Source: Saccostrea cucullata
Taxonomy: Eukaryota
Direction: 5' to 3'
NCBI RefSeq assembly: GCF_032062105.1
Contig: NW_026921645.1
Span: 1-64,000, forward strand
Length of the DNA stretch: 64,000 nucleotides
Below the pieces are notes generated by a model. That model made no database searches. It was not told the DNA's origin and was given only the letters and a program-made list of their open reading frames with translations. A program made the translations under genes and the position numbers. Below, piece by piece: positions 31,225 to 64,000 of this stretch (positions are counted from its first letter, which is position 1; each line of letters starts with the position of its first letter).

Positions 31225-32290
31225 ATGTCAACAATGTCAACGCAGAAAGATGGTAAAAAATCAGAGAGTGGGGGAATCGATAAAAAGGCTAAGGGTGACA
31301 AGAATACTCCAGACAGAAAGTTGGTGCAATTGAACCTCCAGTCAATTCCTGTCAATTCCTGCTTCAATTAAAAATACGGTAGTGTCAGGAAAAAATGCCG
31401 CAAAAAAACAAAGAAGTAGCAGTTCTGATTACGAGTCAACAAGTGGTGTCAATAGTGCATTGGGTGATCTTAGTCTTATACAAGAAGGCATATCGGAGAT
31501 AAAACGAATTATGGTCAGTAAAGATGATGTAAAAGGAATGGTTACTTCAATCGTTACCGAATTAAAGGGTGAACTAAAAAATGAAATCCTCGCTGAAGTC
31601 AAAGAGTCACTCATACCTGAAGTTAAACAGAGCGTGACGGAGCAGGTAAAGAAAGAATTCGGGGAAAAGATAGACAAAAAAACAAAGGAGTTTCAAGATC
31701 AGACTAAAGATATCTCAGAGGGGTTTAATTTAGAGTTTGAAACACTGAAAGAAAAGTTTCACGAGCAAGCAAAAGAACTCAGGGCCCTAAAAGAACATTT
31801 GAAACGCTATCAATATTTGACTGAAACAGCAGTTACTTTAGCAAACAGCAATCAGCAGTATTCGCAAAAGGACAATATTAAGTTCACCAAATGGAATGAG
31901 CAAGAAAACGAAAATCTGCGTGCAGAGCTCTGTGCAATCTTGAAGGAGACAGTCAACGTTGATCTACAACCAACAGATATACTGGCCATACACAGAGTCC
32001 CAGGATCGGGTGGTAATGTCGGACCACGGCCAGTCATCGCCAAATTTAGAAATACCGAGACGAAAGTGATGGTCATAAAGAATCGCTCAAATGCGGAGTT
32101 GAAGAAGCGCTTTGTGATGCACGATCACGTAACTCCTATGAATGCCAAACTTATAAAAGACTTGAACGAGGACGAGCGTATTAAAAGTGCTTGGTACTTT
32201 AATGGCAAAGTGTTTGCGTTGGACTACGATGGAGACAGACACCGATTTGACATCCTGGACAGTGTGTCTGACAAACTTAAACACAAATAG
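31225..32290 (+). CDS. LINE ORF1p (coiled coil + RRM + CTD), frameshifted by a 10-bp duplication; the intact portion is 31382-32290
   Basis: Heptad-rich region, then HRVPG..GPRPVIAKF and SAWYFNGKVF. ATG 31225 is in frame with 31382 once one GTCAATTCCT copy (31341-31360) is removed. Confidence 0.85.
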
Positions 32291-32529
32291 CACGATTTAT
32301 GCATAAACAGCTGGAGCACGAAAAACTTTTAAGATCGGGATCGGGAAGCAGTAAACTTTGTGATCGGGATTGATTGAAGCGAGAGAATGCGAAAGTGTGT
32401 GACATGGTATGTGTGTGAAGATTATCCACTTTTCTTTTGTTTTGTTGCTTATTTCTCCAAAAACTATATACTTCAATCGTCATCCGCTTTTTTGTCTAAG
32501 TATTATTCTTTTATTTTGTATCAGATTTA

Positions 32530-35500
32530 ATGTCAGATAATATAAAAGTTGTTACAGTGAACTGTCAGGGCCTTGCAACACCATCAAAACGACTAGATGT
32601 TTTAAATTTTTACAGAAAAAAAGGATATTCAATTATATGTCTGCAAGATACTCATTTTACTACAGAAATTGAACCATATGTTGAAGCACAGTGGGGTTTC
32701 AAATGTATATTTAATTCTTTTAAATCTAATGCAAGAGGGGTTGCTATAATGTTTAATAATAATTTTGAATTTGAAATACACAGTATAAAATGGGATAATA
32801 GTGGGAATATGCTGGCATTAGACATTACAATTGAAGATAATAGAACTACTATCATAAACATATATGGTCCTAATTCTGATAATCCAGAATTTTATGATAT
32901 AGTTAGAGAAACTTTTCTTGAATTTGATAATGAATATCTGTTACTTTGTGGTGACTTTAATCTTGCTTTAAACCCTTCTTTAGATACTTTCAATTATCGT
33001 AGTGTCAGTAACCCAAAAGCACGTGAGAAACTATTAGAGATTATGGAAGATATTCAGTTAATTGACTACTATAGAATTTTAAACCCAGACAAAAAAATAT
33101 ATACCTGGTTGAAAAAAAATCCATTAAAACAAGGTCGCCTTGACTATATTCTTATTTCAGAAAGTCTTTCAAATTTGGTTGAAAACTTTGTTATTAAACC
33201 TGGTTACAGGTCTGACCATTCTTCAGTTATAATGGAATTAAAATTTAATTCTTTTGAAAGAGGGCGAGGTCTATGGAAATTCAATAACAGCTTATTAACA
33301 GATAAAACATATGTTGGAAAAGTAAAAGAAACTATAGAAAAGGTAGTTGCCCAATATTTACATGTTCCAAATAATGACGGTAATCAATGTAATGTTCAAA
33401 TTGACGACAGTCTGTTTTTTGAAGTTCTTTTGATGGAAATTCGAGGGGTTACTATTTCTTATTCATCTTTCAGAAAAAAAGAAAGACAAAATTCAGAAAA
33501 ATTATTACTAGAGGAAATTGAACATTTAGAAACAATGACAGAAATTAATTTTGAACTTTTAGAAGAAAAAAAGCTGAGTCTTGAAAATTTGAGAAAAGAA
33601 AAATTGCAGGGGCATATCATAAGATCACGAGCTCGATGGATTGAAGAAGGGGAAAAACCGACAAAGTATTTTTGTAATTTAGAAGCCAGGAATTTTTTAA
33701 ATAAAACTATTAAAAAGGTAGAAGTAGAGAGTGAGGGTACAATATATAATCAGGCAGAGATCTTAAATCATGTGAAATTATTCTATAAGAATTTATATAC
33801 AAGTTCAGATTCTGAGCTCTTTGATATTAATTTAGAAGAAATTATTCAAGGACAAGATGTCCCAAAGTTAGATAAGCATACATCTGAGAAACTTGAGTGT
33901 GATATTAATGAAAAGGAAGTAGCAGAAGTGCTTAAAAATATGAAAAATAACAAATCTCCAGGTAGTGATGGTTACACGGTTGAATTTTTTAAATTCTTTT
34001 GGAATGATTTAAAGGCTTATTTACTTAAGGCAATTAAATGTATTTTTATAAATAACGAGCTCCCAATATCACAAAGATTAGGTATAATTTCATGTATTCC
34101 AAAAGGTGATAAACCTAGACAGTTTCTAAAAAATTGGCGCCCAATAACACTTCTAAATGTTTTATATAAAATAATATCAGGATGTCTCGCACAAAGAATT
34201 AAAACAACATTAGATCATTTAATATCAGATACTCAATCAGGATTTATGAAAGGGAGGTATATAGGTGAAAATACAAGATTCATGTATGACTTAATCCACT
34301 ACACAGATTCCAAAAGCATCCCAGGTCTATTAGTTTTGATTGACTTCGAAAAAGCCTTTGATTCAATTTCATGGACATTTACATATAAAGTTTTGAAGTA
34401 TTTTGGTTTTGGTTCAAAGATTATAAATTGGGTCAAGATTCTAAATTTTAATTTTAAAGCTTCTATTTTACAAAGTGGATTTTTATCTGATCAGTTTGAT
34501 ATACAAAGAGGTTGCAGACAAGGTGACCCTGTTTCTCCATATTTATTTATTCTATGTGCAGAAATTCTGGCAATTCTAATTAAACAGAATAAGGACGTTA
34601 AAGGTATTGTGGTAGATAATAAAGAACATAAATTATCTCAGTATGCTGATGACACTTTTCTTGCTTTAGATGGTTCACAAAAATCCCTTTTTGCTGCTCT
34701 TGATACCATTGATTTTTATTCAAAACTTTCAGGATTGAAAATTAACATATCAAAAACTAAAATAGTGTGGATTGGATCAAAAAAGTATTCAAAAGAAGTT
34801 TTCCATCACACAAGGTGGAAACTAGAATGGGGAACTACAACTTTCAACTTACTAGGAATTCAGTTCTCAGTTCATCTTAAAGAAACTGTTGATATTAATT
34901 ATGACTTACAACTACCTAAAATAAGAGCTTTGATTAAACAATGGAAGCGAAGAATCCTAACTCCAATTGGTCGCATAACCGTTGTTAAGACGCTTATCCT
35001 ACCTAAGCTTAATCATTTATTTATTTCTTTGCCATCTCCTAGAAAACAGCTTTTAGTTGATTTGCAAAAAGATATTTTTGAATTTATATGGAAGTCCAAA
35101 TCTGATAAGATAAAGCGATCCCTTGTCACACAAGACTATCTTTCTGGAGGTTTAAAAATGGTCAACTTAGACATTTTTATAATTGCTTTAAAATCTTCTT
35201 GGATGAAAAGGTTAACTCAAAAACAAAAGCCATGGATGGATTTCTTTTTTGCATTAAATGGAAAAGATGTTATTGAGAAGTTATTTCATTTTGGGGATCT
35301 GTTTATTTCAGAGCATTTACTTCCTAAAAACAATTTTTTCTGGCAAGATGTATTAAAATCATGGCTGGAAGTCATGAAGTGTTTAAATAATTGTAAACAT
35401 GTAAAAAGTAATTTTTTAAATATCCCAGTGTGGTACAATTCTAATATCTTGGTTGGCAAACGGTCTGTTTTTATCAAAAATTGGTATGAGAAGGGTATCA

Positions 35501-36348
35501 GAGTAATAGGAGATTTTTTAGATAGCGAAGGAAAATTTTTATGCTTTGATTCTTTACAAAAAAGATTTTGCCTCTCACAAACGGATACAAATAAGCAGAT
35601 TATGCAATATAATAGTGTTCTTACTGCAGTATCAAAATATTTGAAATGTATGTCTATTGACAACCACTTATTCACAAAATCTTACAATACACTTATGCCC
35701 TTTTATTATGAATTGTTGTTACAGTCAGAAAAATGCACTAAGCCAATTTACTCCATATTAAACACAAATAATGTTAAACCTACATCTATATCAAAATGGA
35801 TTTCCATTTTGAGTGTCTATGGGCAGTGTAATTTTGAAATACATGATGTTTTTAAAGTTTGTTTTAAAGTAACAAGTGATACAGCTGTTCAATGGCTGCA
35901 GTTTAGAATACTGCATAGGATTCTTCCTGTAGGTTACTATCTTAAAAAGATTAATATAAAAACTACTGATTTGTGTACCTTTTGTAAGAATGAAAGTGAA
36001 ACAATCCAACATGTATTTTTATTTTGTAATAATATTTTGGCATTGTGGAGTAGTCTTAGCCAACATATATATAGAGCTACTTCAAAAAGGGTCGGATTTA
36101 ACATTAATAATGTTATATTAGGAGAGATTCCTTTGTCAAAAAATAATAGAGCTGTGAATTTTATTATATTATACACTAAACAATATATCTTTACTTGTTT
36201 GATGCAGAAGAAAATGCCAAATCTCAGTGCACTCTTATGTCATCTAAAAATCAAATATAATGTTGAAAAATTTGTTTCAATCCAAAAGAATAAAATTGTG
36301 TATTTTAATTATATATGGTCTACATGGAAACCTGTTTTTGAGGAGTGA
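32530..36348 (+). CDS. LINE ORF2p: APE endonuclease, reverse transcriptase and CCHC zinc knuckle (1272 aa, open)
   Basis: NCQGL, CLQDTH (D where APE usually has E), GDFN, RLDY, SDH; KSPGSDG, WRPITLL, DFEKAFD, RQGDPVSP, YADD; CTFC..ETIQHVFLFC. Confidence 0.97.
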   Translation: MSDNIKVVTVNCQGLATPSKRLDVLNFYRKKGYSIICLQDTHFTTEIEPYVEAQWGFKCIFNSFKSNARGVAIMFNNNFEFEIHSIKWDNSGNMLALDITIEDNRTTIINIYGPNSDNPEFYDIVRETFLEFDNEYLLLCGDFNLALNPSLDTFNYRSVSNPKAREKLLEIMEDIQLIDYYRILNPDKKIYTWLKKNPLKQGRLDYILISESLSNLVENFVIKPGYRSDHSSVIMELKFNSFERGRGLWKFNNSLLTDKTYVGKVKETIEKVVAQYLHVPNNDGNQCNVQIDDSLFFEVLLMEIRGVTISYSSFRKKERQNSEKLLLEEIEHLETMTEINFELLEEKKLSLENLRKEKLQGHIIRSRARWIEEGEKPTKYFCNLEARNFLNKTIKKVEVESEGTIYNQAEILNHVKLFYKNLYTSSDSELFDINLEEIIQGQDVPKLDKHTSEKLECDINEKEVAEVLKNMKNNKSPGSDGYTVEFFKFFWNDLKAYLLKAIKCIFINNELPISQRLGIISCIPKGDKPRQFLKNWRPITLLNVLYKIISGCLAQRIKTTLDHLISDTQSGFMKGRYIGENTRFMYDLIHYTDSKSIPGLLVLIDFEKAFDSISWTFTYKVLKYFGFGSKIINWVKILNFNFKASILQSGFLSDQFDIQRGCRQGDPVSPYLFILCAEILAILIKQNKDVKGIVVDNKEHKLSQYADDTFLALDGSQKSLFAALDTIDFYSKLSGLKINISKTKIVWIGSKKYSKEVFHHTRWKLEWGTTTFNLLGIQFSVHLKETVDINYDLQLPKIRALIKQWKRRILTPIGRITVVKTLILPKLNHLFISLPSPRKQLLVDLQKDIFEFIWKSKSDKIKRSLVTQDYLSGGLKMVNLDIFIIALKSSWMKRLTQKQKPWMDFFFALNGKDVIEKLFHFGDLFISEHLLPKNNFFWQDVLKSWLEVMKCLNNCKHVKSNFLNIPVWYNSNILVGKRSVFIKNWYEKGIRVIGDFLDSEGKFLCFDSLQKRFCLSQTDTNKQIMQYNSVLTAVSKYLKCMSIDNHLFTKSYNTLMPFYYELLLQSEKCTKPIYSILNTNNVKPTSISKWISILSVYGQCNFEIHDVFKVCFKVTSDTAVQWLQFRILHRILPVGYYLKKINIKTTDLCTFCKNESETIQHVFLFCNNILALWSSLSQHIYRATSKRVGFNINNVILGEIPLSKNNRAVNFIILYTKQYIFTCLMQKKMPNLSALLCHLKIKYNVEKFVSIQKNKIVYFNYIWSTWKPVFEE

Positions 36349-46474: not shown

Positions 46475-49400
46475 TCACAATATAGAACAGGAGGATGATC
46501 CTGAGGAAGGTGTCCATGGATATACAGGAGGGAGGAGGGCGGGGTCAGGTTCCTGGAAGGGCTGAGAGAAATACACCCTGCAACATAAAGAAATGCATGT
46601 ACTGATAGCCTTAACATCGACTTAAAAATGCGTGGCGATGGTGGTCAATTTAAATGATCAGGTATGTATTATCTCTTCTTTAATACTGTTTTAGAATGTA
46701 AAGTTTATAGTATAGTGTATTGTACGTATATACTGCAAAAGAATTAACAGTCTATTATTTGTAAGTTTTAATGAACATTAAAAATGATTTTTATAATTTT
46801 CAGACCTGATTGCAGTGACGAAGTGTTTCCCGACCCCCGCGGGACTGATCACGTTAGATTTGCTGTTATCCACACCGAGTGGAGAATGTTGTTTGAAGAG
46901 GTAGGATACGGTATCAACAGTGTAGACAGGTACTCCTAGAAAAGTAAGTCAATGTTACTCACTGATAACATTGTCCAGTGCACAAATGTGATTTTGTTGT
47001 GTTTGACTTGTAACAACAACATATTGGAGAAATGTCTCTCAAATATCGAGATTTAAAGCTACAAAGAACATTTAGAGCAAAATTTGACTAGGAATAGGAA
47101 CATCCACAACAAATTAAAGAATATGATTTTTAGGCAAGGATATTCACAATTTTGTAAGAGGTACTCTTGCCCATCGATCATTAGCATGAATTTACTTGTC
47201 TGCAAAATACCCATGGTAAGAAGAAGAGGATTTTTAAAGAATGAAGGCATTTTCAGTGAATGATCAACAGAACTCCATCTTATCACTGGAATCCCTGATC
47301 AAGAAACCGTGATTTTCACAATGTGGAAGGAGATATACTTTATCATCATAATTTTGTTTGTTACATTTTACCTACATCTAACACCAGAGCCCTTGTATCT
47401 GGGTCTCTGATTTTTATAATTTTTTAGGAACCTTCGCTCATCAGAACAATGTGTTTACGTTGTCTGTTCAATTCTAAAGAGCAAAGATCTTTTTAAAGAA
47501 TCTGCAAATTTTCACTTTATGGTCCAAAGGGCTCAACCCTAATCAGAACCATGGCTCAGGGGCAAAAAATTTCGCTATTTTGAAAGAGGCTCAATTAAAT
47601 TATGCACTAACTTTGGTTGCTGAATATAAAGGGGGGAAAAGAATATCGACATACAACGACGAATCGAAGAAATCAGATAGCAAGAGGTCAACGAAATTGT
47701 GTGCCCTTATATATAATATCCTCGGTTACCAGTGACAAATCGTGTCTTTAACTAGACACCTGTTTGAAGACCAGGCGTGGGTATCCGACGTCGTATGCCC
47801 TGATAAACTAAATATACCTGTTGCTCTCAGCCAAGCTTCGATCCGGTACATTGTTTGTTGCATATTTTCAAATGACTTCGGTCCAGTACGAACGGGAAGG
47901 AAGAGTTTGGTGGAAAGGCCTGGCGGAAAGGAATTGGTTGAACTTCCGTTTACTTTGAAAATGCGAATTATCTGTAACTGTTTTCCTTCTGCAGTACCGA
48001 AGACAAAGTCATCGGTATCGTTCGATAGAACATCAACCTCACCTGAAAGGAAAAAAAAATCATACATTGTTCTGTTACAGCACTTTGAAAAACAGTTGGT
48101 GAAATCAAGAAAAGAAGATAGAATTGTACGATACCCATTACTTCCCGGTATTTCGATATATGAGTTTGTATATTGACAATCCGTCCTTCCTAAGAAAAAA
48201 AATCAGTATGAATACATATTTTTCATCAAAAAGTGCAAGCAGAAAAATCACTTTCGAATCAAGTGTTTGAAATAAAAAGGAACGTACTTTTAGTTCTGAG
48301 GGTGGATTTTTAGATAGACGTTCCAGTGTTTCATCGTACGTCTCAAACCTGGCAGGTGTCCCCATTCCAGGTTTATGGGTTACTTTAGGTATAACATCTA
48401 TCAATTCTGCGGAATATACAAGCAAAAAGAAGGGACAATATTTTAAGGCCATAATGGTCCCATATGCTAGGGTGCTGTTTTTAATATTCTGTACAATTAC
48501 CAAAGGTTTCCTGTGCTGAAGTTCCAATGATGTAGAATATCCGGAGAATCTGCGTGTAACGCCGTGATTTCCCGCCATTTTCATGAAACACTGTATTGTC
48601 AGGATCCACGTCTAACTTCTCATATCCCTCCGCAGCCTTTATCACGGCACACTCCACAGTCAAAATAGTTCCTTCAATAGCATGAAGAACTACTTCACAC
48701 AATTTTAAGACGATTGACAGTGCTCTGTATATCTCAACATTATTTTTATTTGTCTTAATATGTCCTATTTCATATTATTCTGACCTACCTCCAATGGGTT
48801 TACTCTTGAGTTCTTTGTTTAGCTTGTCTACAGTAGTTCTCAGTCCTTCGTATGATGCTATGGTTTGAACTAAAGCCGGACCGTGAAATCTGCGGCGTCC
48901 ATAGAAAGCGAAGGGTATGGATACCTTGTCTGGAACTCTGCTGTAAAGCCCCAACTGTTGAGGAGGCGAGGAACTTTTGTCGCGGGCATACAACCACAGT
49001 CTAGTAATGATAGATTAATATAGATTAATATGGACAAAATGACTGGATCACAATTATTTGCTCCAGTATACAAGTTTATTTTTCAAAATCTTTGAATTTT
49101 TACGACTCTTTAGTTCTTTAGTTCTTTGATTGAATTTTAAAGAGATTTACCTGATTCCATTGATGTAAACGTTAAACCCATACGTGGCCTCGTGAAATAA
49201 CATGCTTTCCATTATAACTTCCCCGCTTGGCTCTACCTTTCGCTCTACCGTCTCACATTTCCACACGCCGTACATTGGATTCTCTCGTAGCCAGTGGTTG
49301 GATGCCTGTATCAAAGTACTGTAAAAGTAAAACAAAAAGTGATTTGATGCCTGGATCAATGTACTATCAAAGTGAAACAAACAGTGAAAATCAGGAACCT

Positions 49401-49750
49401 ACAGAGCAATTGCAGCTGGGTTGGGGTTTAGGATACACTCGACCATACAGTAAAATCCTTGACAACGTCCAGAAAATTATCTGATTATAAATTGGTGCAT
49501 TTAAACTTAAAAATGCTATAATTAACCCTTACCTGAACTTGTCGTATTCCGGTGGAACTCGTCCTTTCATATTTCCCGGGTGAAGACATCGAGGCATTAT
49601 GTCAATGTAAGCCAAGGGCGGCAACTCCTCCTTAGATACGTCAGTCTTCGCTGAGGTTTGGGCCTGGTGCCCCATAATGTCCTCATAGGAGGGCGGAGGG
49701 AGCGAGTTGATAACATCTTCTGTGGTTATTACTGGTGGGGGCGAATCCAT
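46475..49750 (-). CDS. Uncharacterised PPxY / four-repeat / CaaX protein, paralogue A (~466 aa, ends CSIL)
   Basis: Exons 49533-49750, 49151-49318, 48789-49000, 48501-48671, 48288-48406, 48135-48189, 47818-48042, 46806-46935, 46475-46577 (1401 nt). All introns are GT-AG and collinear with paralogue B. Confidence 0.85.
47040..47710 (-). mobile_element. Degenerate HINE/Helentron remnant in intron 7 of paralogue A
   Basis: Diverged AACACCAGAGCCC../CCCTAATCAGAACCATGGCTCAGGGG units like those at 18.7-20 kb. End ..CAACGACGAA..GATAGCAAGAGGTCA. Confidence 0.5.
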
Positions 49751-50119
49751 ACTCACACTGAACAAGCTCGATACGGGTTTCTTTGATAAGATAGAGATGT
49801 CGAATACACAGTTTGAGTTCTTTGACAGTCTTTTTACAGCAACCAGACCATTTCATAAATGTTCATTCCTAATCATGCCTTTACATAACTGGAATATTTC
49901 ATTTGGTCATTTTCTTCCACATGTTTCCAGAACACTGTATGAATGGCAGCAGTATTGCAAAACTGACCAAAATAAGACATTTAAATCAATAAACACTGTT
50001 CCTGTATGGTTTCATTGACCTTCGATAATCGGGGGAGTTTTCAAAGGCATTTAAACGTGTAAAAGGTGTATCCACAAGTATACTTTTGTTTTGACAATAC
50101 TTGAGGAATAACGGTTTAA

Positions 50120-50545
50120 ATTTTATAACAAACGCTTGAAAAACAGGTAGGACATACGTTGATGGGGATGTTTCTCCGTCCACCTGTCTGTTCGTCCGTC
50201 AGTCCTTTACGCTTTGGAGTACCCATTTCTTATTCGCAACTCCTCCTTTTCTACTGATTGAAATTAAATTAGTTTCACAGAATCTTTGTTACAGGGTGTC
50301 ATTGCGCACTTTTTATTTTTTTTTTATCGAACACATATTTAGGGTTTCTCATAGCACAACATGGACATTACTATTGAGGGATACCCATCTTTTATTCGCA
50401 TTTCCTCCTATACCACTGAATAAAATTTAATGAAACTTTCTCAGAATCTTTATTACATAACTGGTGCCAATGTGACCTCCTGTATTACTTCTTGATCTGA
50501 CATCTATTTCAGGTCTCTCATAGCAAAACATGGACTTTGCCAATT
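50120..50545 (+). mobile_element. HINE-like remnant with two to three ~160-bp units
   Basis: (CCGT/CTGT) microsatellite, then repeated ACCCAT..TTATTCGCA..TCCTCC..CAGAATCTTT..TCTCATAGCA.AACATGGAC. Confidence 0.55.
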
Positions 50546-51447
50546 ATGATAATTTTTTAGCTCAATATTCACTGTACCCCTAGATGGTTTTATGATGTGA
50601 TCATGATCAAGCATTTGCCTTGCGTGATAATTTGAATATTTGCCTGAGTTGATTATGCATAAAATAATTATGCAAGCTTTTTGCTTGATCATCATCACAA
50701 AATCAGAAAATCTGATAGCTATTTCTTATATCTACATGTTTTCAATTCCATTGATATACCTGCTCCAATCCAACCCTTCTTTTTTCTGTCTCTTTCGCCT
50801 TGCACGTGGTATTTTAAGACCACGCCTATCGATGAACCAGTAGCGTTATGTAGAAATCACGTATTATGACTACTTGTGGATTTATCTAGGATCTTTTTAA
50901 TGTAAATATTTGAACATACCAAAGTGAATCTAACTAATGTTCCAATACTTGAAATAAACAGGAAATTTTCATCAATATAACAAATGACTTTTTTTCTGGG
51001 GTACATGATTGGTAAATTCAAAACAGTTTAATTTTAACTCTCTGGAACGTGCATTTTTACAATTTTCTTTGATCACAAAATCCTTGTGTGAATGTGTGCA
51101 TGATGTTAATTTTACCTTGCTTGTGGCAAAAATTTATGTACAATCATTGTTTCCTTCACAAATTTCATTTTCTCAATAATTTTCATCTTTGTTTGCTCAG
51201 AAAAAAGAGGTATCTTTATGCACATACCTTTACATACGTTTTACATGCATGATATGTTTTAGATCTTATTACCTATGGATGGCTCACATTTGTAAATGTT
51301 TCAGCAATGTACGTACTGGTTATAAGTACATCGCGTTTGGTCATTATATTTGAATACGTTCAAGGCAGACAATGAAGTTTTATCTCTTGTAATTTTAAAA
51401 AAATTATCATGTAAAGAAATTATTTTATTATGCATGACCAAAATGAA

Positions 51448-51448
<1 letters not shown>

Positions 51449-51482
<34 letters not shown>
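51449..51482 (+). repeat. (CT)n microsatellite
   Basis: About 16 CT units, one interrupted. Confidence 0.9.
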
Positions 51483-51486
<4 letters not shown>

Positions 51487-51835
51487 AATATAAATACAAA
51501 CAAAAAATAATACATTTGCAATGACAAAGAGGTATATTCATTCAATATATTTTTGTCAGATAAACCTTTGACAAATTTACATTGCATGAATTTCTAAAAC
51601 ATAAATCATTTAAGACTTAGAATGCGGAGAATGTATAATAAAATAGTAAGTGATCGTGGTCAGAGTTTTCAGTTAATGCTTTTGAATCTAATTTAAAAAA
51701 ATAAATATTATTGTCGAAGAAAGTTCCATAATCAAAACTGGATAGCATCTGCAAATCTCTCTCATAAGATGTACATGTAAATAAAAGTACAGATAATACA
51801 ATTGATAGACAAGTTGACGTCACATGAGCCGCGCT

Positions 51836-54800
51836 TTACTGGATAGTACAGGTAGAGGATGGTTTCATGGAGGGATCCCAGGGGAAAGCGGGAGGGAGAT
51901 AAGACGGGTGGGGCTCCTGGTACGGATAGAGAAAGTAAACCCTGCAAAAATGTGAAAGTATCGTAAATACAATTGTACATGCTAATCTGAGTCTATAATT
52001 TTAAGGGTTATCTGATATCTTTATGTGTATTTTATTTAGAGTAATTTATAGTTTGTATATATAAAGTTGTAGCTATAAATGTAAATCTTTTTCCCCTTTA
52101 ATTTGTATTTTTCGTTTACCTGACCGCTGTGACGTAGTACTTCCCAACTCCTTTAAAGGACGTGTAGTACGTCCTGGTAGCATCCACAGCTGACTTCAGG
52201 GATTCTCGATAAAGAAACTTGACGGTTTCCACTTTATACGAAGGGATACCTGTTTTCGACAACAGTTTAATAGAGACGTCTTACGTAAGTTCATATATGT
52301 ATTACTTTTAGCTTTTTCGATTTTATTTGAATTTAAGACTTATATAAGTAAATATATGGATACTTTGAGATTACCTGTGACTTTTAGCCAGGCTTCAATA
52401 CGGAACATTGTCTGTGACATTGTCTCAAATGACCTCTCTCCTGTCCTGACGGGGAGGAATAGCCGTGACGTAATGAAGCTGATTTGTGGTGGGGGTGCGG
52501 CACTAGGCGCCATCACGTAAAATACCCGGAGTGTCTGGAGAAATGACCTTTCCGACATTCCGTCGTCGAAGTCGTCCGTCAGATCCGAGAGAATGTCAAG
52601 TTGTCCTGTAATACGGTAGAAAGTTCGAATCTATTGAGTTACACAAATCACTGAGAGTAGATATCCGATTGACTATAGGATATGAGCTTACCTAGCTTGT
52701 CTGTGTAACGGACTTCATGTGTCTGAATGTTGACCAACTTTATACCCTGAGAGAGTTTATCCAAAAGTTATCTTCAATAATTTTTAGTATACATTTAAAT
52801 TATTAAATAGGACACATGTCTATAAATTTATGTATCATATTTTAAAAGAAGATGTTTTACTTACAGTTTGATGCGGCAACCATTTGTTGAATTTTGTCAT
52901 GTTTTCTTCGAAATTCTGAAACTGTGCGTGAGTAGCAATATCCGGTGGTTTTGTAATGCTGGGAATAAATTCTTTCATCCCTGGTACAAAAAGGTTAAAA
53001 ACACAATGGATAAACAAAGAATGTACGAATGCACACTACATGTACGAGGGGTTATCAAAAAGTTCGTGGACTGAGGCTATAAAATTAGTACTATGTAGTC
53101 TGTGCTTTCAAAATTTATATGGAACATAAAACAACAAAAAATAAAGAAAAGTTGAAAATTTTAGCCTGATACGTTCATTATTTTCCAAATTATTATGAAA
53201 TGAAAACGACAATATATGATCACTCGGCGCTGTCGTCGTTTACTTTCATGACGTCTGATAGCGTCATTGTTTTTTCATTGTCCGCTTCTTTTACCTCATA
53301 CACTTTCTTGATGAGAAACCCGGGAGCTAAGAAAGGACTTAAACCCGACTTGTTTATATGACTTTACAATGCCATGAACAGTGGCCTTCAATGAATATAA
53401 TATTCCAAATGGATTGATACATTGGGAGAGATCCGCGCTTGATTGTGCCGGCATATTTTGCTTTTGGGAGTTCAATATCTACAACGCATGATCAGCGACA
53501 TTTTTTGACGTGATTAATTTTTCACAACTTGACTGCACATCGACATTAACTGTGTATCCCTTTTCTCTCTGAATCTATTTTGACATTAAAAGACAAGTAC
53601 TCTGGATGCATTTTATTTCTCTGTAGCCAGTTTCAACATATTTATGTCTAGGTCAGGGGCACAACTTGATAGAATGTAGGAAACGGAAACCCCTCCCCCC
53701 TTTTGACGTCATTTTCAAGGCCTCATTTATTTGGACATTCCGTGTAAAATTTGCGATATAATTTCATAAAACTTCCAGAATGAAGTGAAAGTTTCGTATT
53801 TTATGGAACAATTGTGTCCAGACACATACCTGTTTTATAACGGGATTTTTGGATGTCAAATGACCGTATCAAAAGAGTTTTTCTTAGTTACACGTAGGTC
53901 GCAAAAACGTCGTGTTCGAGGTTGCGCCGCCTGGACATACCATTGCTTACAAAAACATCACTCATTGATTGAAAAATAAAATTTATGATTTATGGTTTAT
54001 TCTTTAGATAGAAAAGATGATGATAACTAGATATTGTAAAATTCGTTGATATGCCTAAAGCGGTTTTAATTTTATGACGCTAGTCCACGAACTTTTTGAT
54101 AACCCCTCGTATATATTTATACAACGTGTCCCCTACATTTTTTCTAAATTATTGGAATAAGAAATTTCAAGTAAAGAACTACGATTAACCTATTGTTTCA
54201 TTGGCAGGTTCTCCTATGACGTAGAAGACACGTATGATCTGCGTGTACCGCTTCATTTTCCCGCCATTCTCATGACAGACAGTGTTATCAGGATCAATGA
54301 CAGCTTTTTCCAGTCCCTCAGACATCTTAAGTGTGGCACTTTCAACATTCAGTATAGAACCTGGGTAAGCATTGAAATACTAGTAATATCAGTTTTCAGC
54401 ATTCTGAAAACTGATATGCTTAACAATTGTTAAATGTTAATAGCTATGGAATAATACTTTTTCTATATAAGGTATCTTTTAGAATTTTGTAGTATTCAAA
54501 CCTTGCAGTGTTTGTTTCTTTAAATCTTCATTTAAGCTTTGTAGGGTTTCATCAAATCCCTGATATGTGGTCATTGAATAGCCATACATTTGTAGAAATA
54601 ATGGATGCCCGATGGCAAACCCAGCAAATGGGTGATACAGCTGGCCAGCTGTGAGGTTCACCTCTGTGGTTTTGGGGACTTTGTTTAAAAGTCCTAGTTG
54701 TTGTGGTGGTGTGGAGGGGTCTTTAACGTATAACCATAACCTAAAACAGTCAATAAAAGGACTGTATGAGGACACTGTTGAGAGAGTATAAAGGTGACTG

Positions 54801-57453
54801 CAGGATCAGTTTATCATTTCAATAAAGAATGGATTTTAATTTTTTCCATTTCTTAAAGAATATTATGGTTAACCCTCTGATGAGAACCTTGTCATATTAT
54901 GGCGTTCCCTTCCTTAGTTCTCTCACGAGTATGTATAGGAGAAATACAATATGGTGTTCCCTACCTTAGCCCTCTGATGAGAACGTTGAAGCCATAGGTT
55001 GACTCGTGGCTTAACATCTTATCCATAATTATCTCCCCGCTCGACTCCACCTTTCGTTCTACCGTCTCACATTTCCACACACCGTAATTTGGGTTTGCTC
55101 GGAGCCAGTAATTAGCTGCTCCTATCAGGGTACTGCAAGCATAAGATAATTAATAGCCATTCTCTGTAACCACTTAAACTTCGTTGCCACGCATGGTCAC
55201 CGATTTTGATGAAACTTCACCCATGCTTAGTACTTAACACCAGAAACAGATATCAAAATTTCGTTGCTATGTGTCTCGGTTGCTATGGCAACAACCGGAA
55301 AATTTTGAAAAATCGAGATTTTCAGCCACTTTAAATCTTGACTGTGGCTTAAAAAAAACTAGAAAAAGCAAACAAACCATTCTCACAAAAACATGACACC
55401 TTGATGTCACTCATACTGTAAAGAAACTGTTTAGATTATATCTCTAAGTAATTGGTAACAAAGGGTACTTTTGGAATACATTTAAAATGCTGAAATATTC
55501 TGAAAAACACTCTGTATTCACCAATGGTAGGTGTTACATGCTCAAACTCAATCAACGACTTAAGAAGAACAATGAAAATGTTTGACCTTAAGTATATAAG
55601 TATAAGCAATATCATTCTATAAATAACTTTTATGGTTGCCATGGTAACACAGTGTAACCATGCAAAACCAGTAACTAAGATTGGATTAATCCTACTGTCT
55701 TGAGGAAAAACATGAAAAATCAAGACTGGCAAATATGCATCCTTAGGACCTTGCAACACCAAAACCATAAGAAAAATTGAGTATAATTGCTACTTTGCAG
55801 TCTTACCATGGAAACAAAGTACCAGTGCTTAAAAGTGAATTATTTTTCGCTGCATTAAGAATTAAATTGCCATTTAATCAAGAAACAAATTAAAGGACTC
55901 AGCTTGAATAGTACTTATCTGTTAGAACTGAAGTTGAATATCATATATTGATAAAATTTGATAAATAAAACAACACTGTTGCTATGGTTTCCAAGAAGGG
56001 AAAATGTTCGATTTTGTGACCTTTATATCAATATTAAACCCTGTGTGCCAACTTCTTGCATCCACTTAGAGATTGGATGATAGTCAAAATTAAAAGTAAA
56101 GTTAGCTGTTAATAAATATCAATCATAAAAGTTTTGGGAATCTACATTTAAGGGTACGTATCCACGGAAATAAAATATTTTTCAGGTTTTTAAGCATATA
56201 TTTTCTGCTTATTTCCATAGCAACGCTCTATTTAAAGAATAGAATCGGAATTTTTTTCAAATGGGAAAACTTGGAGCACACCGACATCTTATTAAATTGA
56301 TCATTAGTTATGAGGAAATGTGCTTTTTTTAAAAGACAGGATCAGATTTAATTATACAGAGTGTTACTTTGAAGGCTCTCTGGGTATAAAAACCTTGGCA
56401 ACCATTGCCAACCAAAATGAAATATCATATTATGTTCTTGGTATATGTTTCAAGGCTCTTTTTTCTATTATTTGGTAACATTTCATCCTATAATTGCTTT
56501 TTATTTTTACGTGTATGACTTTATAAAATTCAATGAATATTTTTTTTTTACTTTTGAATACTTTCTTACCATAGTAACGTATGTAATAGTTGATTTACCA
56601 AACATGTTTATCATGCATTTGAGACATCTGACCTTCAACTTTTGGAAACAGTCATTGCCCATTGTTTGCTTTGCCGCAAATGTTAACTATGGCGCTCTAA
56701 ACATGTTAAAAAATGCCATTTTTCGAACTTCAAGACATGTTGCCATGGTAACTATAAAACATAGCAACCAATTTTTGCCTGATTTCAGTTTAGGGTATCA
56801 ATGTCTTTTATCATAGAGAGTTTGGAGAAATTCTGAGACTATGCGTGCCACAGCTCCTATATAAAATTTCAAATCATTACAGAGAATGGCTCTTAATGTT
56901 CAGTGATATTGTAAAGTTTTACACTAACAGTTTAGTGCTGTGTGTTCTACAGTTTTGAAATGTTTCCAAATTATACCCCCCAAAAATGCAAAAAAAAGTT
57001 CCTTATAAGGAGGTCCTGAGAACCTGGATTACTGAATTTCTATAAATTCATCTAATATGTCTAAGAAAATGTTATTATAATTTATATGACGGATAGTTAG
57101 GAGATATTTTTCCTTGTAACCAAGATTTTTTTATACATGTACATTAATTCTTAATACACGAAATTTTCTGCATACAATTAGAAAATACATAAAGAACACT
57201 AAAACACTGTTAAAATGTCACAAGTCTGTTACAAAGTTTACCTGAATCTGTCGTATTCGGGTGGCACCCTTTTCCTCATGTTCCCCGGATGCAGACACCT
57301 GGGCATGATGTCTATGTAGGCCAGGGGAGGCAGTTCTTCCCTAGGGACGTCAGCCTTCACGGAGGAGAGAGCCTGGTGTCCCATCACCTCCTCATAAGAC
57401 GGCGGGGGCATGTGTTTATCCACATAGTCAGGAGTTACAGGGGACTTGGACAT
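51836..57453 (-). CDS. Uncharacterised PPxY / four-repeat / CaaX protein, paralogue B (~475 aa, ends CTIQ)
   Basis: Exons 57242-57453, 54965-55132, 54502-54740, 54190-54360, 52865-52980, 52692-52746, 52375-52605, 52120-52249, 51836-51941 (1428 nt). Shares EELPPLAYIDIMPRCLHPGNM, YGVWKCETVERKVE and FLPVRTG with paralogue A. Confidence 0.85.
53045..54109. mobile_element. Non-autonomous Tc1/mariner element
   Basis: Perfect 28-bp TIR CGAGGGGTTATCAAAAAGTTCGTGGACT. TA TSD at 53043-53044 and 54110-54111. No long ORF. Confidence 0.88.
55154..56892. mobile_element. Non-autonomous TTAA-targeting DNA transposon (Sola3/Kolobok-like ends), rich in X-box motifs
   Basis: TIRs TAGCCATTCTCTGTAA / TTACAGAGAATGGCTC. 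TTAA at 55150-55153 and 56893-56896. Confidence 0.75.
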
Positions 57454-58549: not shown

Positions 58550-59463
58550 TCACTTAGTTCCCCTCCACGGTCTTATCAGGTGTTGATGATTGCATAAAAT
58601 TGGTTGATTTTTAATGAAAAGCCGTGAACAAACATAAAAAAATATAAGAAAAACTATGATTTCTTATTGTGAAGAATGACTGTAAACCACATCCCTTTCT
58701 TTCAATCTCATTAATGATTTGTTCACTTTTTGTGGTTCTGGTAAAAATGACAGCTCTATGGTTTAATGTAAAAGACATTAGACTCTGACATGTCTATTTC
58801 TATTGTTCACTGAAGTCCGGCCAAACGATCCTTTCTTTTAAGACAATTGTACACGATTTCACTTCCTTGTGAAATAAAAATACGTTTAATAGATCAACAT
58901 ACACTCTTTAAATGGATGGGATACATCCATCATTTTTACGTTTATTAAACAGGAACATTAATTCGAATAGAGCCTTGATATAATTTATACAAAGAAGTTT
59001 ATAGTACATCATAAGATAACATAGTTTTCAGACAGATCAATTGGATAGTGCAGCTGTAGTAAGTATGTAGTTTGTAGGAAATAATTTTACGTTTTAACAT
59101 CGACTGTAGTAATATTTAATGAATGAATATTAATTAATTTTTAGGAAATAATAATTAGATTGAGTTGAAGAATATGAGATTTTGCAATTATGTCATGACA
59201 AAAATAGCTGTAAAAATAAATCATACATAAATAATTTTCCAAATTTATAATTAATTTTAAGCGTGATTTCACTTTTCTCCCAATAATAATGTCTTTATTT
59301 AGATTATATTTATTATATGATATTTATACATGAATTTCACGGAACTAAGGTCTCATACAAAAAAAATTATAATCGTGGCTATCATAATATTAGAAGCAGC
59401 TTTAACTTTTTGAAGTTTTTATATTCTGTTTACAGATTCAGTATGTGCCGCTACAGTACAGCC

Positions 59464-61284
59464 ATGGTGAGATTAACCCTAACTTTGATATATTCCCTGT
59501 TGATTTCATTGGAGGTCACCAAGGCGCTTATTCTCCCTGCGTATAACCTCAGATCCGCCTCTAACCACAAAGTTATGGCGCTCTCAGGAGCCACAGATGG
59601 AAAAGCAGTGTTAGTGTCACAAGAACAACCACTGTCCCTTAATGTGTGTATCAGGAAGCACTCCATGATACGACTGGACGATGTCAGGTTTTCTAATTAT
59701 AATTACTCCACCTTCTTCAACGTGACCTTCAATAGTGGAGAATGGATGGGAACATTCTATGTGAGACCCGGTATGGATTGGAACCGATTCAAGAACACGG
59801 GAATATTTCCACACAGATACACCCTGGAACCCGGATGGCACGTCATCAAGATTTACGTCATGGATTACTTCGGGTACACGGAAGGCATTGCTGTGGATAC
59901 TTTACGGTTCAGTGTAGATGACCCATGGATGGACAATGATATTTTATCGTGCAAAACAATATGCACAGAGAAAAATAGGTTCCCCGTACGATCTCCGTCC
60001 TCTTCCGAGAACGCATTGCCTTCTGGAATAGAACAGAGATCGTTTCCGACTAAGTGTGCAGAAGTTGATAACATTGACATACCCCTGTACAACGCTCACA
60101 TTGACAGCTTCACGATTACGGCTTCACTTCCGCAGTATAAATCCTTCTCCAACAGAAGGGAAGAGAACACCACAAACTGCCCTCATCTAAGTTCAGAATT
60201 GTGGCGATTCGATAACTTTAACGTCAGTTCCTCATCTGCCGAAATAATCAACAATAAGGGCGCCAGAATGTCATTTTATTCAACGTCTTCAAACGAAGTT
60301 TATATCATCATTCGTTTCTTTCTGGAGGGACAAAAGAAAGGGAGTGTGGATGCAAAAATTGGATCGTTATTAACTCTTCAGTTAAAGACCCTTACAGCTC
60401 CAACAATGATAAAATTGCGTTATAAAGAAAAATGGGGTAATCTGTCGTTACCGATTACACATAATTTTACACATCAGAATCTGCAATTCACATGGACAAT
60501 CCCAGACTTTACCTGGACGGAAGACAGTCTTAATTACATCATTTTAACAGCAGAGTCAGAAAATCTTGCTCTCTTGGTAAATAATTTGCGTCTGGAGAAA
60601 AGAGCATTCAAGCCCGAGAAGCACGTGACCATCTACAAGAGTGATGACGTACACATTGTAGCTGTTTACGTAGAAATGTGGTGGTTAGCCCCGGACAGAA
60701 TGACTGTACACCTCACTAACGGACAGACCTACGAAGACGTTGCTTATCTACAGATCTACAGACCGATTCCATGGAACAATGGGTATTCTCAAGTTCTAGT
60801 TTTGTACCAGGACGGAAATGCCCGATTCATTCCGGTGACTCCCGAAGGACTTGACTGGATCCCATTTGGTACATCCGTTATTCTTGGACAAACGTACAGT
60901 GATTCAATAAGACCTTATACCTCCATAAAACAGCTTAATATAGACCCAGAACGATGGACTATGCGCATCTTTTATAAAGATGGAGGTTCGATGCTAATGA
61001 AAATTAACAGTACTTACAGTGAAACTCAAGCTCATGTGTCCGAAGTTTTCTTCACAAGGGACAGGTATACACTTCCGTTTGCCACTGTACGGTCAATGTA
61101 TGTGTCTGAAGGTAATACTGATGTAGACAGTGTCAAGGTCGACGATAAAGAGACCTACCATATAATGGACCAATGGGGCTACGTTCAAGGAAGGAGCTTC
61201 GCATTTTACCGCAGTTGTATATCCAGACACTTAACACTTAGTCCCGACATCCAAATTGATGTGTTTAAAACCAAAATATCGTGA
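59464..61284 (+). CDS. Uncharacterised secreted protein (~606 aa) with a CBM6/CBM35-like N-terminal beta-sandwich; single coding exon
   Basis: Kozak GCCATGG at 59464 and signal peptide MVRLTLTLIYSLLISLEVTKA. Pattern VRFSN..WNRF..LEPGWHVIKI..GIAVDTL. Trp-rich C-half (VEMWWL, YSQVLVLYQDGNAR, DWIPFG) and several NxS/T sites. Confidence 0.85.
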   Translation: MVRLTLTLIYSLLISLEVTKALILPAYNLRSASNHKVMALSGATDGKAVLVSQEQPLSLNVCIRKHSMIRLDDVRFSNYNYSTFFNVTFNSGEWMGTFYVRPGMDWNRFKNTGIFPHRYTLEPGWHVIKIYVMDYFGYTEGIAVDTLRFSVDDPWMDNDILSCKTICTEKNRFPVRSPSSSENALPSGIEQRSFPTKCAEVDNIDIPLYNAHIDSFTITASLPQYKSFSNRREENTTNCPHLSSELWRFDNFNVSSSSAEIINNKGARMSFYSTSSNEVYIIIRFFLEGQKKGSVDAKIGSLLTLQLKTLTAPTMIKLRYKEKWGNLSLPITHNFTHQNLQFTWTIPDFTWTEDSLNYIILTAESENLALLVNNLRLEKRAFKPEKHVTIYKSDDVHIVAVYVEMWWLAPDRMTVHLTNGQTYEDVAYLQIYRPIPWNNGYSQVLVLYQDGNARFIPVTPEGLDWIPFGTSVILGQTYSDSIRPYTSIKQLNIDPERWTMRIFYKDGGSMLMKINSTYSETQAHVSEVFFTRDRYTLPFATVRSMYVSEGNTDVDSVKVDDKETYHIMDQWGYVQGRSFAFYRSCISRHLTLSPDIQIDVFKTKIS

Positions 61285-62169: not shown

Positions 62170-64000
62170 TATGGAGATAACGAACAGTACTCAAGCTGAA
62201 AAGTCTATTTAACAAAACAGACAAGGAGCAGAGCAAACACAGACCTCCAAATCATCCGAGGTGGGATCATGTGCCACGGAGGAGTGAGCATGCCCTGCCG
62301 ACCGGTCATACCCGCCGTGTCATGATCGGGAAATAAAGGAAAATCTGTTGACAAATCGGTGTGTATATAATGGCCTAACAATTAGTTTGAAACACGTCAG
62401 TCAGCATTTGACTTAAGGTAGTCCAATCCTCAGGTTTAAAAAATTAACAGTTAAGTAATCAAAAATACTCATAAAAGTATCTCTGAATCCACAATGTTAT
62501 TTGTAATTTTATCCACAGTATTTCGTCAAAGTTAACGATTAAAGTTAATCATATTATACAGGGAATATTGTCAGATCTCCAATGTTTTTGCAGAAAAAGC
62601 GAATTGAAATATCAGCAATGCATTTTCTAATTGCAAATTGATCAATAAATATATTTTAGGTTAGGAACGATAAGTATCCAGGTATTGAGAGTGGTAATCC
62701 TACTTATTCTCATACTTCCCTTTCTAAGGAAGAAATTCTTCAAAATTATGTGTCAGTTTTGAATATTTTTAATATTCCACAGAGCCAAAATGAATTTGAA
62801 CTACCTTATATGTATTGGATTCCGAAACTTCATAAGAATCCTTACAAACAAAGATACATTGCGGGTTCCAGTAAATGTTCAACCAAGCCTCTTTCGTTAC
62901 TCCTCACTAAGATATTGACAGTAGTGAAGGAAAAACTTCAAGAGTACTGTGCAACTATATATTCAAGAAGTGGTGTGAATCAGACGTGCATACTAAAAAA
63001 TTTTAAAGAACTTTTGGACAATTTGAAATCACAAAATTTTACCAAAATCAACAGCTGAAAAGTTTACGACTTTCACTTTATACACAACAATTTCCCACAA
63101 CAAATTAAAATCCAGGCTTTTTGATTTCATTGACAGCTGCTTCTTCAATAAAAATGGAACTCGTAAGTTTACTTACCTGGTCATTTGCAAAATTATTTTG
63201 TTAAAACAGATTCTGATTGCACACAAGTACTCTGAAATTGACATCAAAAAGAAACTTAAGTTTCTGATTCATTAACAATATCTTTGTAGTTTTTGGAGAC
63301 CAGGTCTTCCAACAATCTATTGGAATTCACATGGGTACCAATTGCGCCTCGTTATTAGCAGATCTATTTTTGTATTCATATGAAGCAGAATTTATGCAAA
63401 ATCTTATGAGTGAAAAGAAGAAAACACATGCTGTGGCCTTCAACTCGACCTTCAGAGGAGAGATTGAGATAAAAGATACCACAGAGTCTGACACATCTGT
63501 TTCATACTTGAATATTTTACTTGAAAAAGACGTTAATGGTAACCTAACAACCAAGTTATATGATAAACGTGACGACTTTAACTTTTCTATTGTCAACTTC
63601 CCTTACTTATGCAGCATATACCTTCATCACCGCATACGGAGTGTATATATCTCAGTTGATTCGATACGCAAGAGCATGCTCTACGTATGAACAATTTCTA
63701 AAACGAGGTAAATTATTGACAAGCAAGTTGAATGAATCAAGAATATCAGCAGTCTCGTTTAAAGTCATCATTTCGTAAGTTCTATGGTCGGTACAATGAC
63801 TTTATCAGCAAATACAATTTATCATTGAGTCAAATGCTGACTGACGTTTTTCATACCAATAGTTAGTCCATTATTTATACACTGAATTGACGACAGATTT
63901 TTCCGTTATTACAATGAGCACACGGCGGGTCCGACCGGTCAGCAGAGGATGCTCACTCCTCCATGGCATCTGATCCCACCTCTGATGTTTCGGAGGTCCG
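62170..64000 (+). mobile_element. 5'-truncated Penelope-like element (Naiad-type, RT at the C-terminus) with an inverted 5' pseudo-LTR; runs off the right edge
   Basis: RT remnants LPYMYWIPKLHKNP, MGTNCASLLADLFLYSYE, LYDKRDDFNF and AYGVYISQLIRYARACS. The YIDD segment is deleted and no GIY-YIG follows the RT. 62170-62418 is an inverted copy of the 3' end at 63825-64000. Confidence 0.85.

Follow-up and report, generated by a model that had tools for sequence, protein, structure and literature searches.

Tandem oyster genes encoding four-repeat proteins with an N-terminal PPxY motif and a C-terminal CaaX box, candidate prenylated adaptors of Nedd4-family ubiquitin ligases

Two neighbouring genes, here called A and B, in a 64,000-nucleotide stretch of the Saccostrea cucullata genome (RefSeq assembly GCF_032062105.1, contig NW_026921645.1, positions 1 to 64,000 of the forward strand; hereafter the window) encode proteins with a PPxY motif near the N-terminus, four internal repeats and a C-terminal CaaX box, raising the question of what such an architecture may serve and what the differing CaaX ends of the two paralogues imply. 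The role favoured here, rated slightly below an even chance, is that of a prenylated Nedd4-family adaptor with a four-repeat, target-capturing module. Both genes lie head to tail on the minus strand, are 52% identical and comprise nine exons each with matching intron phases; joining the exons at GT-AG sites results in uninterrupted frames.

57453-51836, minus strand: gene B, 475 amino acids, C-terminal CTIQ
57453-57242, 55132-54965, 54740-54502, 54360-54190, 52980-52865, 52746-52692, 52605-52375, 52249-52120 and 51941-51836, minus strand: coding exons of gene B
49750-46475, minus strand: gene A, 466 amino acids, C-terminal CSIL
49750-49533, 49318-49151, 49000-48789, 48671-48501, 48406-48288, 48189-48135, 48042-47818, 46935-46806 and 46577-46475, minus strand: coding exons of gene A

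The products of genes B and A are letter-identical to the Saccostrea cucullata proteins of LOC134260481 (P0001) and LOC134260480 (P0007), respectively, both carried in RefSeq as 'uncharacterized protein'. RNA data join all eight introns of gene A and at least seven of the eight in gene B, intron 1 of the latter not being among the matches listed. Since the CSIL- and CTIQ-bearing last exons are both spliced in, they represent true transcript ends, and the objection that transcripts might finish in other exons without a CaaX box fails. Raw-read depth is low in two 2026 runs and zero over gene A in a third. Repeats in introns and between the genes (about 52990-54110, 55150-56900 and 50200-50650) show heavy read pile-ups with loose ends and are probably transposon insertions. 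PPPSY, PPEY, CSIL, CTIQ and all eight gene B segments quoted in the original prediction, which had been made from the letters alone, are present in the gene models, and its observation as a whole is largely confirmed as to genes, splicing, motifs and repeats, with corrections to the repeat pattern and to PPEY. The resulting architecture consists of a PPxY-bearing arm, a body of four repeats predicted to be compact, a short Ser-rich linker and the CaaX box.

The body is made up of the following units, given for gene B.

54716..57336, minus strand: repeat 1, about residues 40-135, strand-helix-strand-strand
54206..54709, minus strand: repeat 2, about residues 138-258, with a variable helical insert
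52502..54205, minus strand: repeat 3, about residues 259-355, folded alone at a predicted local distance difference test score (pLDDT) of 92
51917..52486, minus strand: repeat 4, about residues 361-449

In HHalign comparisons, all six pairs of repeat profiles scored at 93-99% probability, whereas none of 16 reversed controls exceeded 15.5%, and four repeats are present in 147 of 201 proteins; BLASTP self-comparison did not detect the repeats. Each unit is predicted as strand-helix-strand-strand (EHEE) with pLDDT values of 87-92, and the same order, plus extra short strands, is found in the secondary structure of both models. Hence, the repeats foreseen in the original prediction are real, whereas their motif is looser than had been written. 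The Trp is absent from repeat 2 in both genes, and repeat 3 of gene A lacks N-x-W-L; A-type genes in general, which sit on a longer branch than the B-type, have lost the repeat 3 Trp (48288-48406, exon 5 of gene A) that is kept in 42 of 45 proteins. Among members only about 20-30% identical, every repeat carries a Glu/Gln in strand 2 (commonest residue at 85-98%), and its last strand contains an Arg (95-100%).

Two PPxY sequences per protein had been proposed as ligands of Nedd4-type WW domains.

57394..57405, minus strand: gene B PPSY, residues 17-20, conserved PPxY in the N-terminal arm
49685..49696, minus strand: gene A PPSY, residues 19-22, conserved PPxY
57253..57264, minus strand: gene B PPEY, residues 64-67, structural P-x-F/Y ahead of the repeat 1 helix
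49544..49555, minus strand: gene A PPEY, residues 66-69, same structural position as gene B PPEY

The first of them is conserved far above chance, as 71 of 114 N-termini carry a PPxY ahead of repeat 1 versus 4.5 expected from shuffles, and PPxF is seen in only two cases; these and all other motif counts refer to related, not independent, sequences. It is retained at variable spacing in members with as little as about 25% identity and in groups as far apart as molluscs, amphioxus and hemichordates, and lies in a flexible region (pLDDT 63-69). PPEY, in turn, was rejected as a second WW ligand. At this position, PPxY is read in only 5 of 45 (and 5 of 111) aligned members, all from the oyster clade, 35 of the 45 show Phe instead of Tyr, and the segment is part of the ordered region with which repeat 1 begins (pLDDT about 93), indicating a structural role.

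At the other end of the proteins, the two paralogues differ in the last residue of the CaaX box.

46478..46489, minus strand: gene A CaaX box CSIL, predicted geranylgeranyl type
51839..51850, minus strand: gene B CaaX box CTIQ, predicted farnesyl type

Conservation of the box itself is evident from a Cys at position -4, which 47 of the first 50 homologues have and which recurs in 116 of 138 four-repeat full-length proteins with a tail, 115 of these 116 having an aliphatic a2 residue. The X residue is distributed as L 55, S 19, V 12, Q 10, M 9, I 5, F 3, T 2 and A 1, and a further Cys stands beside the box in 20 of the 116. In a yeast screen without farnesyltransferase, from which the passages and values drawn on here set a score below 0.2 at 37°C as marking a canonical geranylgeranylated end, CSIL and CTLL score 0.014 and 0.015, while CTIQ, CSIQ, CAIQ and CSIS reach 1.1-1.9 (PMC11304957). 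With tetrapeptides on a yeast reporter as proxy, CSIL thus falls among the geranylgeranylated ends, and CTIQ does not. The 'Ras_HM' column of a companion supplement, a score not interpreted here, ranks CTIQ (17.6) above CSIL (12.4) (PMC10320760). For human geranylgeranyltransferase I, ends outside the L/I/M consensus are described as staying unmodified in the part of the source considered (PMC11152559). Judged by the yeast scores and this consensus, the A/B switch likely changes the lipid from geranylgeranyl to farnesyl. It is also held in oyster orthologues, where the database proteins of B-type end in Q (four of four) and those of A-type in L (three of three), so that the L/Q switch of the original prediction is supported, whereas its extension to different target membranes is unsupported, because a basic patch, a second Cys and a palmitoyl signal are absent from both tails and because X changes frequently among family members. 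A single prenyl group chiefly determines affinity, and the switch would likely alter membrane affinity and exchange more than compartment.

That the L/Q difference reflects neutral drift within acceptable CaaX boxes is a real possibility, albeit well short of an even chance. X varies widely across the 116 members, Mytilus orthologues end in S, and a single RNA contig (run X7, depth 5.5) with 11 differences in the last exon of gene A would end this gene in CCSIS (window positions 46479, 46490 and 46491), a farnesyl-type X plus neighbouring Cys that resembles the Mytilus ends. Drift fits less well with the uniform Q and L ends of the B- and A-type proteins, with the concomitant divergence of gene A in repeat 3 and with a mollusc clade lacking PPxY, in which all nine rows end in S or Q with a Trp just upstream. 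The older, mollusc-wide duplication behind the latter is a cleaner case of a switch than A/B, but it is one event only.

As for the extent of the family, a search with gene B retrieved 50 relatives, those with names being all molluscan, and a profile search at E≤0.001 gave 723 cluster representatives, 150 of which were listed. Names were obtained for 21 of the 30 distant clusters that were checked; all read 'uncharacterized' and come from a hemichordate, amphioxus, a tunicate, annelids, a nemertean, a brachiopod, a sea spider, mites, a centipede and a tardigrade, besides one from an apicomplexan transcriptome, probably carried over from the host. Vertebrates, insects and nematodes are not among the names, from which absence in those groups does not follow. 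Pfam yielded no family over the curated cut-off in 19 window segments, 45 homologues or 51 single repeats, and in 87 distant members the sole one was a zinc-finger fusion, zf-CCCH_3, in P0091, a member with a long N-terminal extension. P0093-P0095 and P0099 also have long N-terminal extensions, retaining PPxY about 10 residues ahead of repeat 1. Independent expansions are seen in the annelid Dimorphilus, at near-consecutive gene numbers, and in the tardigrade Paramacrobiotus, with at least five family genes (members P0098, P0119, P0140; P0104, P0107, P0112, P0134, P0173). A third gene in the oyster genome itself (G000:C19422, about 19020-14275, minus strand, loci L011/L012) belongs to the PY-less mollusc clade, its first exon lacking PPxY and its C-terminus reading WGCSIS; a second query found no further family locus in this genome. 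In a quick tree of 58 rows, leaving out seven short or truncated proteins among the first 50 homologues, A-type and B-type genes each make up a clade of their own, with support 100 in either case, and share an unresolved fork with a Pinctada gene ending in CAIL; P0003 and P0035, not in the tree, were typed by similarity. No paper retrieved contains any of six family locus identifiers, and the titles and abstract starts listed under PPxY+CaaX+Nedd4, PY-adaptor and family-descriptor topics did not mention the family; paywalled journals and supplements not open to view, oyster expression tables for example, lie outside this coverage. Hence, the family is real, expressed and, as far as the searches reach, undescribed, as had been proposed.

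Among known systems, the Nedd4-family PY adaptors, namely alpha-arrestins/ARRDC, Ndfip and Commissureless/PRRG, are the closest in mode. The oyster proteins share with them a conserved PPxY in a flexible arm and a membrane-directed body, whereas they have neither the arrestin fold nor a transmembrane helix (maximum hydropathy 0.9-1.1), their anchor being the CaaX box; no Pfam match to arrestin domains or Ndfip-type families was found in 45 or 87 proteins, and the predicted fold differs. Prenylation also occurs in other ligase receptors, as FBXO10 is reportedly a prenylated F-box protein. Such CaaX-anchored substrate receptors are an F-box/SCF matter, while a HECT ligase is proposed here and no F-box was matched by Pfam in 45 homologues or 87 distant members. 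FBXL2, with its compartment tuned by cysteines beside the CaaX box (PMC9988375, in part), finds a parallel in the CaaX-adjacent Cys of the 20 family members. In KCTD5, a CUL3-binding BTB domain is combined with a ring, of a core that the oyster repeats may share, as substrate receptor, according to the excerpt used (PMC10348674). Compared to KCTD5/2/17, which are CUL3 substrate receptors, and to the H1 domains of KCTD12/16, the oyster proteins, at 4-8% identity, have four covalent repeats instead of a homopentamer and carry PPxY and CaaX; Pfam gave no BTB/T1 match, a mere 40-residue arm preceding repeat 1. Because the defining domains are absent, the oyster proteins resemble PY adaptors in mode but belong to none of the arrestin, Ndfip, KCTD and F-box families.

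Fold comparison pointed, with weak and tied matches, to the substrate-binding domains of KCTD5 and KCTD16, to GFRP, to Cse60 and to the N-domain of Fvan-cmp, described in the text at hand as a barrel of five EHEE repeats (PMC9912923). The Fvan-cmp/GFRP entry, with which the EHEE repeat is shared, is the best whole-chain structural match and spans all four repeats. However, the oyster proteins have four units, each some 90 residues long, where Fvan-cmp has five of 44 (root-mean-square deviation 5.3), the five-repeat barrel is not reproduced in this mostly four-repeat family, and the oyster proteins are predicted to be cytosolic and lipid-anchored, not secreted. The suggested resemblance to small bacterial proteins is borne out only by folds (Cse60, DUF4177, dodecin), whereas no sequence link was detected to these or to the giant-virus orphans (Harvfovirus, Klosneuvirus) that are the closest predicted folds of a single repeat (probability 1.0, template modelling score 0.54-0.59). 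HHalign gave background values, 1.5% for Cse60 (PF10957) and 0.1% for DUF4177 (PF13783), using thin profiles of seven and nine sequences that also miss each other; a short-protein search for bacterial relatives returned five proteins, all reading as pieces of the oyster family; the repeat profile matched none of 301 genomes of one bacterial phylum (no positive control); and an Atlas named-cluster search gave no usable match. YbjQ-type proteins were not noticed among the matches listed and are not thereby excluded. PDB sequence searches had no match under E 0.05 (E 1.7; none; E 0.09), the last, a contractile-sheath protein, being judged due to chance.

Taken together, the architecture, the KCTD5 ring as substrate receptor and FBXL2 as CaaX-anchored receptor are the reasons for favouring a prenylated Nedd4 adaptor. 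The CaaX box would likely be prenylated, anchoring an otherwise soluble protein to the membrane, the N-terminal PPxY would likely recruit a Nedd4-family ligase, and the four repeats would act together as a ring-like module that holds a target on the membrane side so that it can be ubiquitinated. Such a protein would be a single-chain KCTD5 counterpart in which PPxY-Nedd4 replaces BTB-CUL3 and a lipid anchor is added. With this, the original interpretation is kept for the undescribed family, the CaaX box, the first PPxY and the L/Q switch, while the second PPxY is given up and the different membranes lack support. Several observations weigh against the adaptor role. PPxY is missing in 43 of 114 members, including the whole PY-less mollusc clade and the third gene, and the core function therefore does not need it. 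Moreover, PY motifs bind Nedd4 WW domains without by themselves making a substrate, about 700 arrayed human proteins having one and about 50 being strong substrates in the data drawn on here (PMC2824488). The fold matches tie with ribosomal S6/S10, ACT, dodecin and designed proteins, Foldseek against PDB finds nothing at E≤0.001 for either model, and, as models predict the repeat fold and compact packing only, a closed ring of four is our inference. Relatedness of the counted sequences adds to this.

The main rival, a serious one though we think it unlikely, is a prenylated protein whose PPxY serves only its own turnover or endosomal/vesicle sorting and whose repeats act independently, for instance in sensing a small ligand or an ion or in allosteric regulation after the manner of GFRP or the C-terminal domain of KCTD1. 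A stable PY-less clade with repeats and CaaX retained is in line with this, and the strand 2 Glu/Gln with the last-strand Arg would fit a polar site, but the pair may be a plain structural salt bridge, and retention of PPxY from molluscs to amphioxus and hemichordates is as in dedicated adaptors. Precedents are GFRP binding phenylalanine and the KCTD1 ring binding ions, as far as reported in the part consulted (10.1101/2024.06.14.599093). A prenylated scaffold tethering a non-ligase WW protein to the membrane is improbable, although the WW partner is not specified by the present data. PPxY binds any group I WW domain, and non-ligase WW proteins such as YAP/Yorkie, Kibra and MAGI would do as well. 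The motif flavour PP[S/T]Y[E/D]-x-hydrophobic (45 and 63 of 114), however, is typical of Nedd4 adaptors, and a single conserved motif would suit tandem-WW scaffolds less. A fused KCTD-type module sequestering or degrading G beta-gamma at the membrane, for which the KCTD5 C-terminal domain as top row of the VIA second look at folds and the reported G beta-gamma binding of KCTD5 and KCTD12 via such a core (PMC10348674, in part) might speak, is very improbable. Modelling gene B residues 36-456 in complex with a G-beta substitute from a metagenome, identical to oyster exons at 270 of 283 residues, scored 0.00 when run without alignment and is evidence neither way.

Elsewhere in the window, the following features were noted.

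31334-36348, plus strand: apparently intact retrotransposon resembling a long interspersed nuclear element, with a 318-amino-acid frame and a 1282-amino-acid frame, which we take to be ORF1 (open reading frame 1)-like and endonuclease/reverse-transcriptase-like, respectively
59446-61284, plus strand: single-exon frame of 612 amino acids with a hydrophobic N-terminus (secreted-looking), no Pfam match
62660-63690, plus strand: broken reverse-transcriptase-like fragments, by eye
13569-13937, plus strand: RGG-rich exon, probably of an RNA-binding protein

Regarding the proteins of genes A and B, the analysis points to a novel arrangement within a known kind of system and to a repeat domain that no annotation covers and that is kept in most invertebrate bilaterian groups sampled. 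If the adaptor role is true, it would be a new kind of membrane-anchored Nedd4 adaptor uniting prenyl anchor and PPxY in one protein, a combination not encountered in the literature searches, and the KCTD/GFRP ring fold may extend to a fused four-fold form. More speculatively, and rather doubtful as a whole, these would be ancient invertebrate ubiquitin-ligase receptors, in which a KCTD/GFRP/Cse60-type unit was fused into a four-bladed ring linked by PPxY to Nedd4 and by CaaX to the membrane, and whose paralogues would be retuned through PPxY gain or loss and lipid-code switching (geranylgeranyl, farnesyl, farnesyl plus neighbouring Cys or Trp) into ligase-recruiting and PY-less decoy versions. 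The tandem pair and the PY-less third paralogue of the oyster lend themselves as a natural experiment on the effects of prenyl type and of ligase recruitment.

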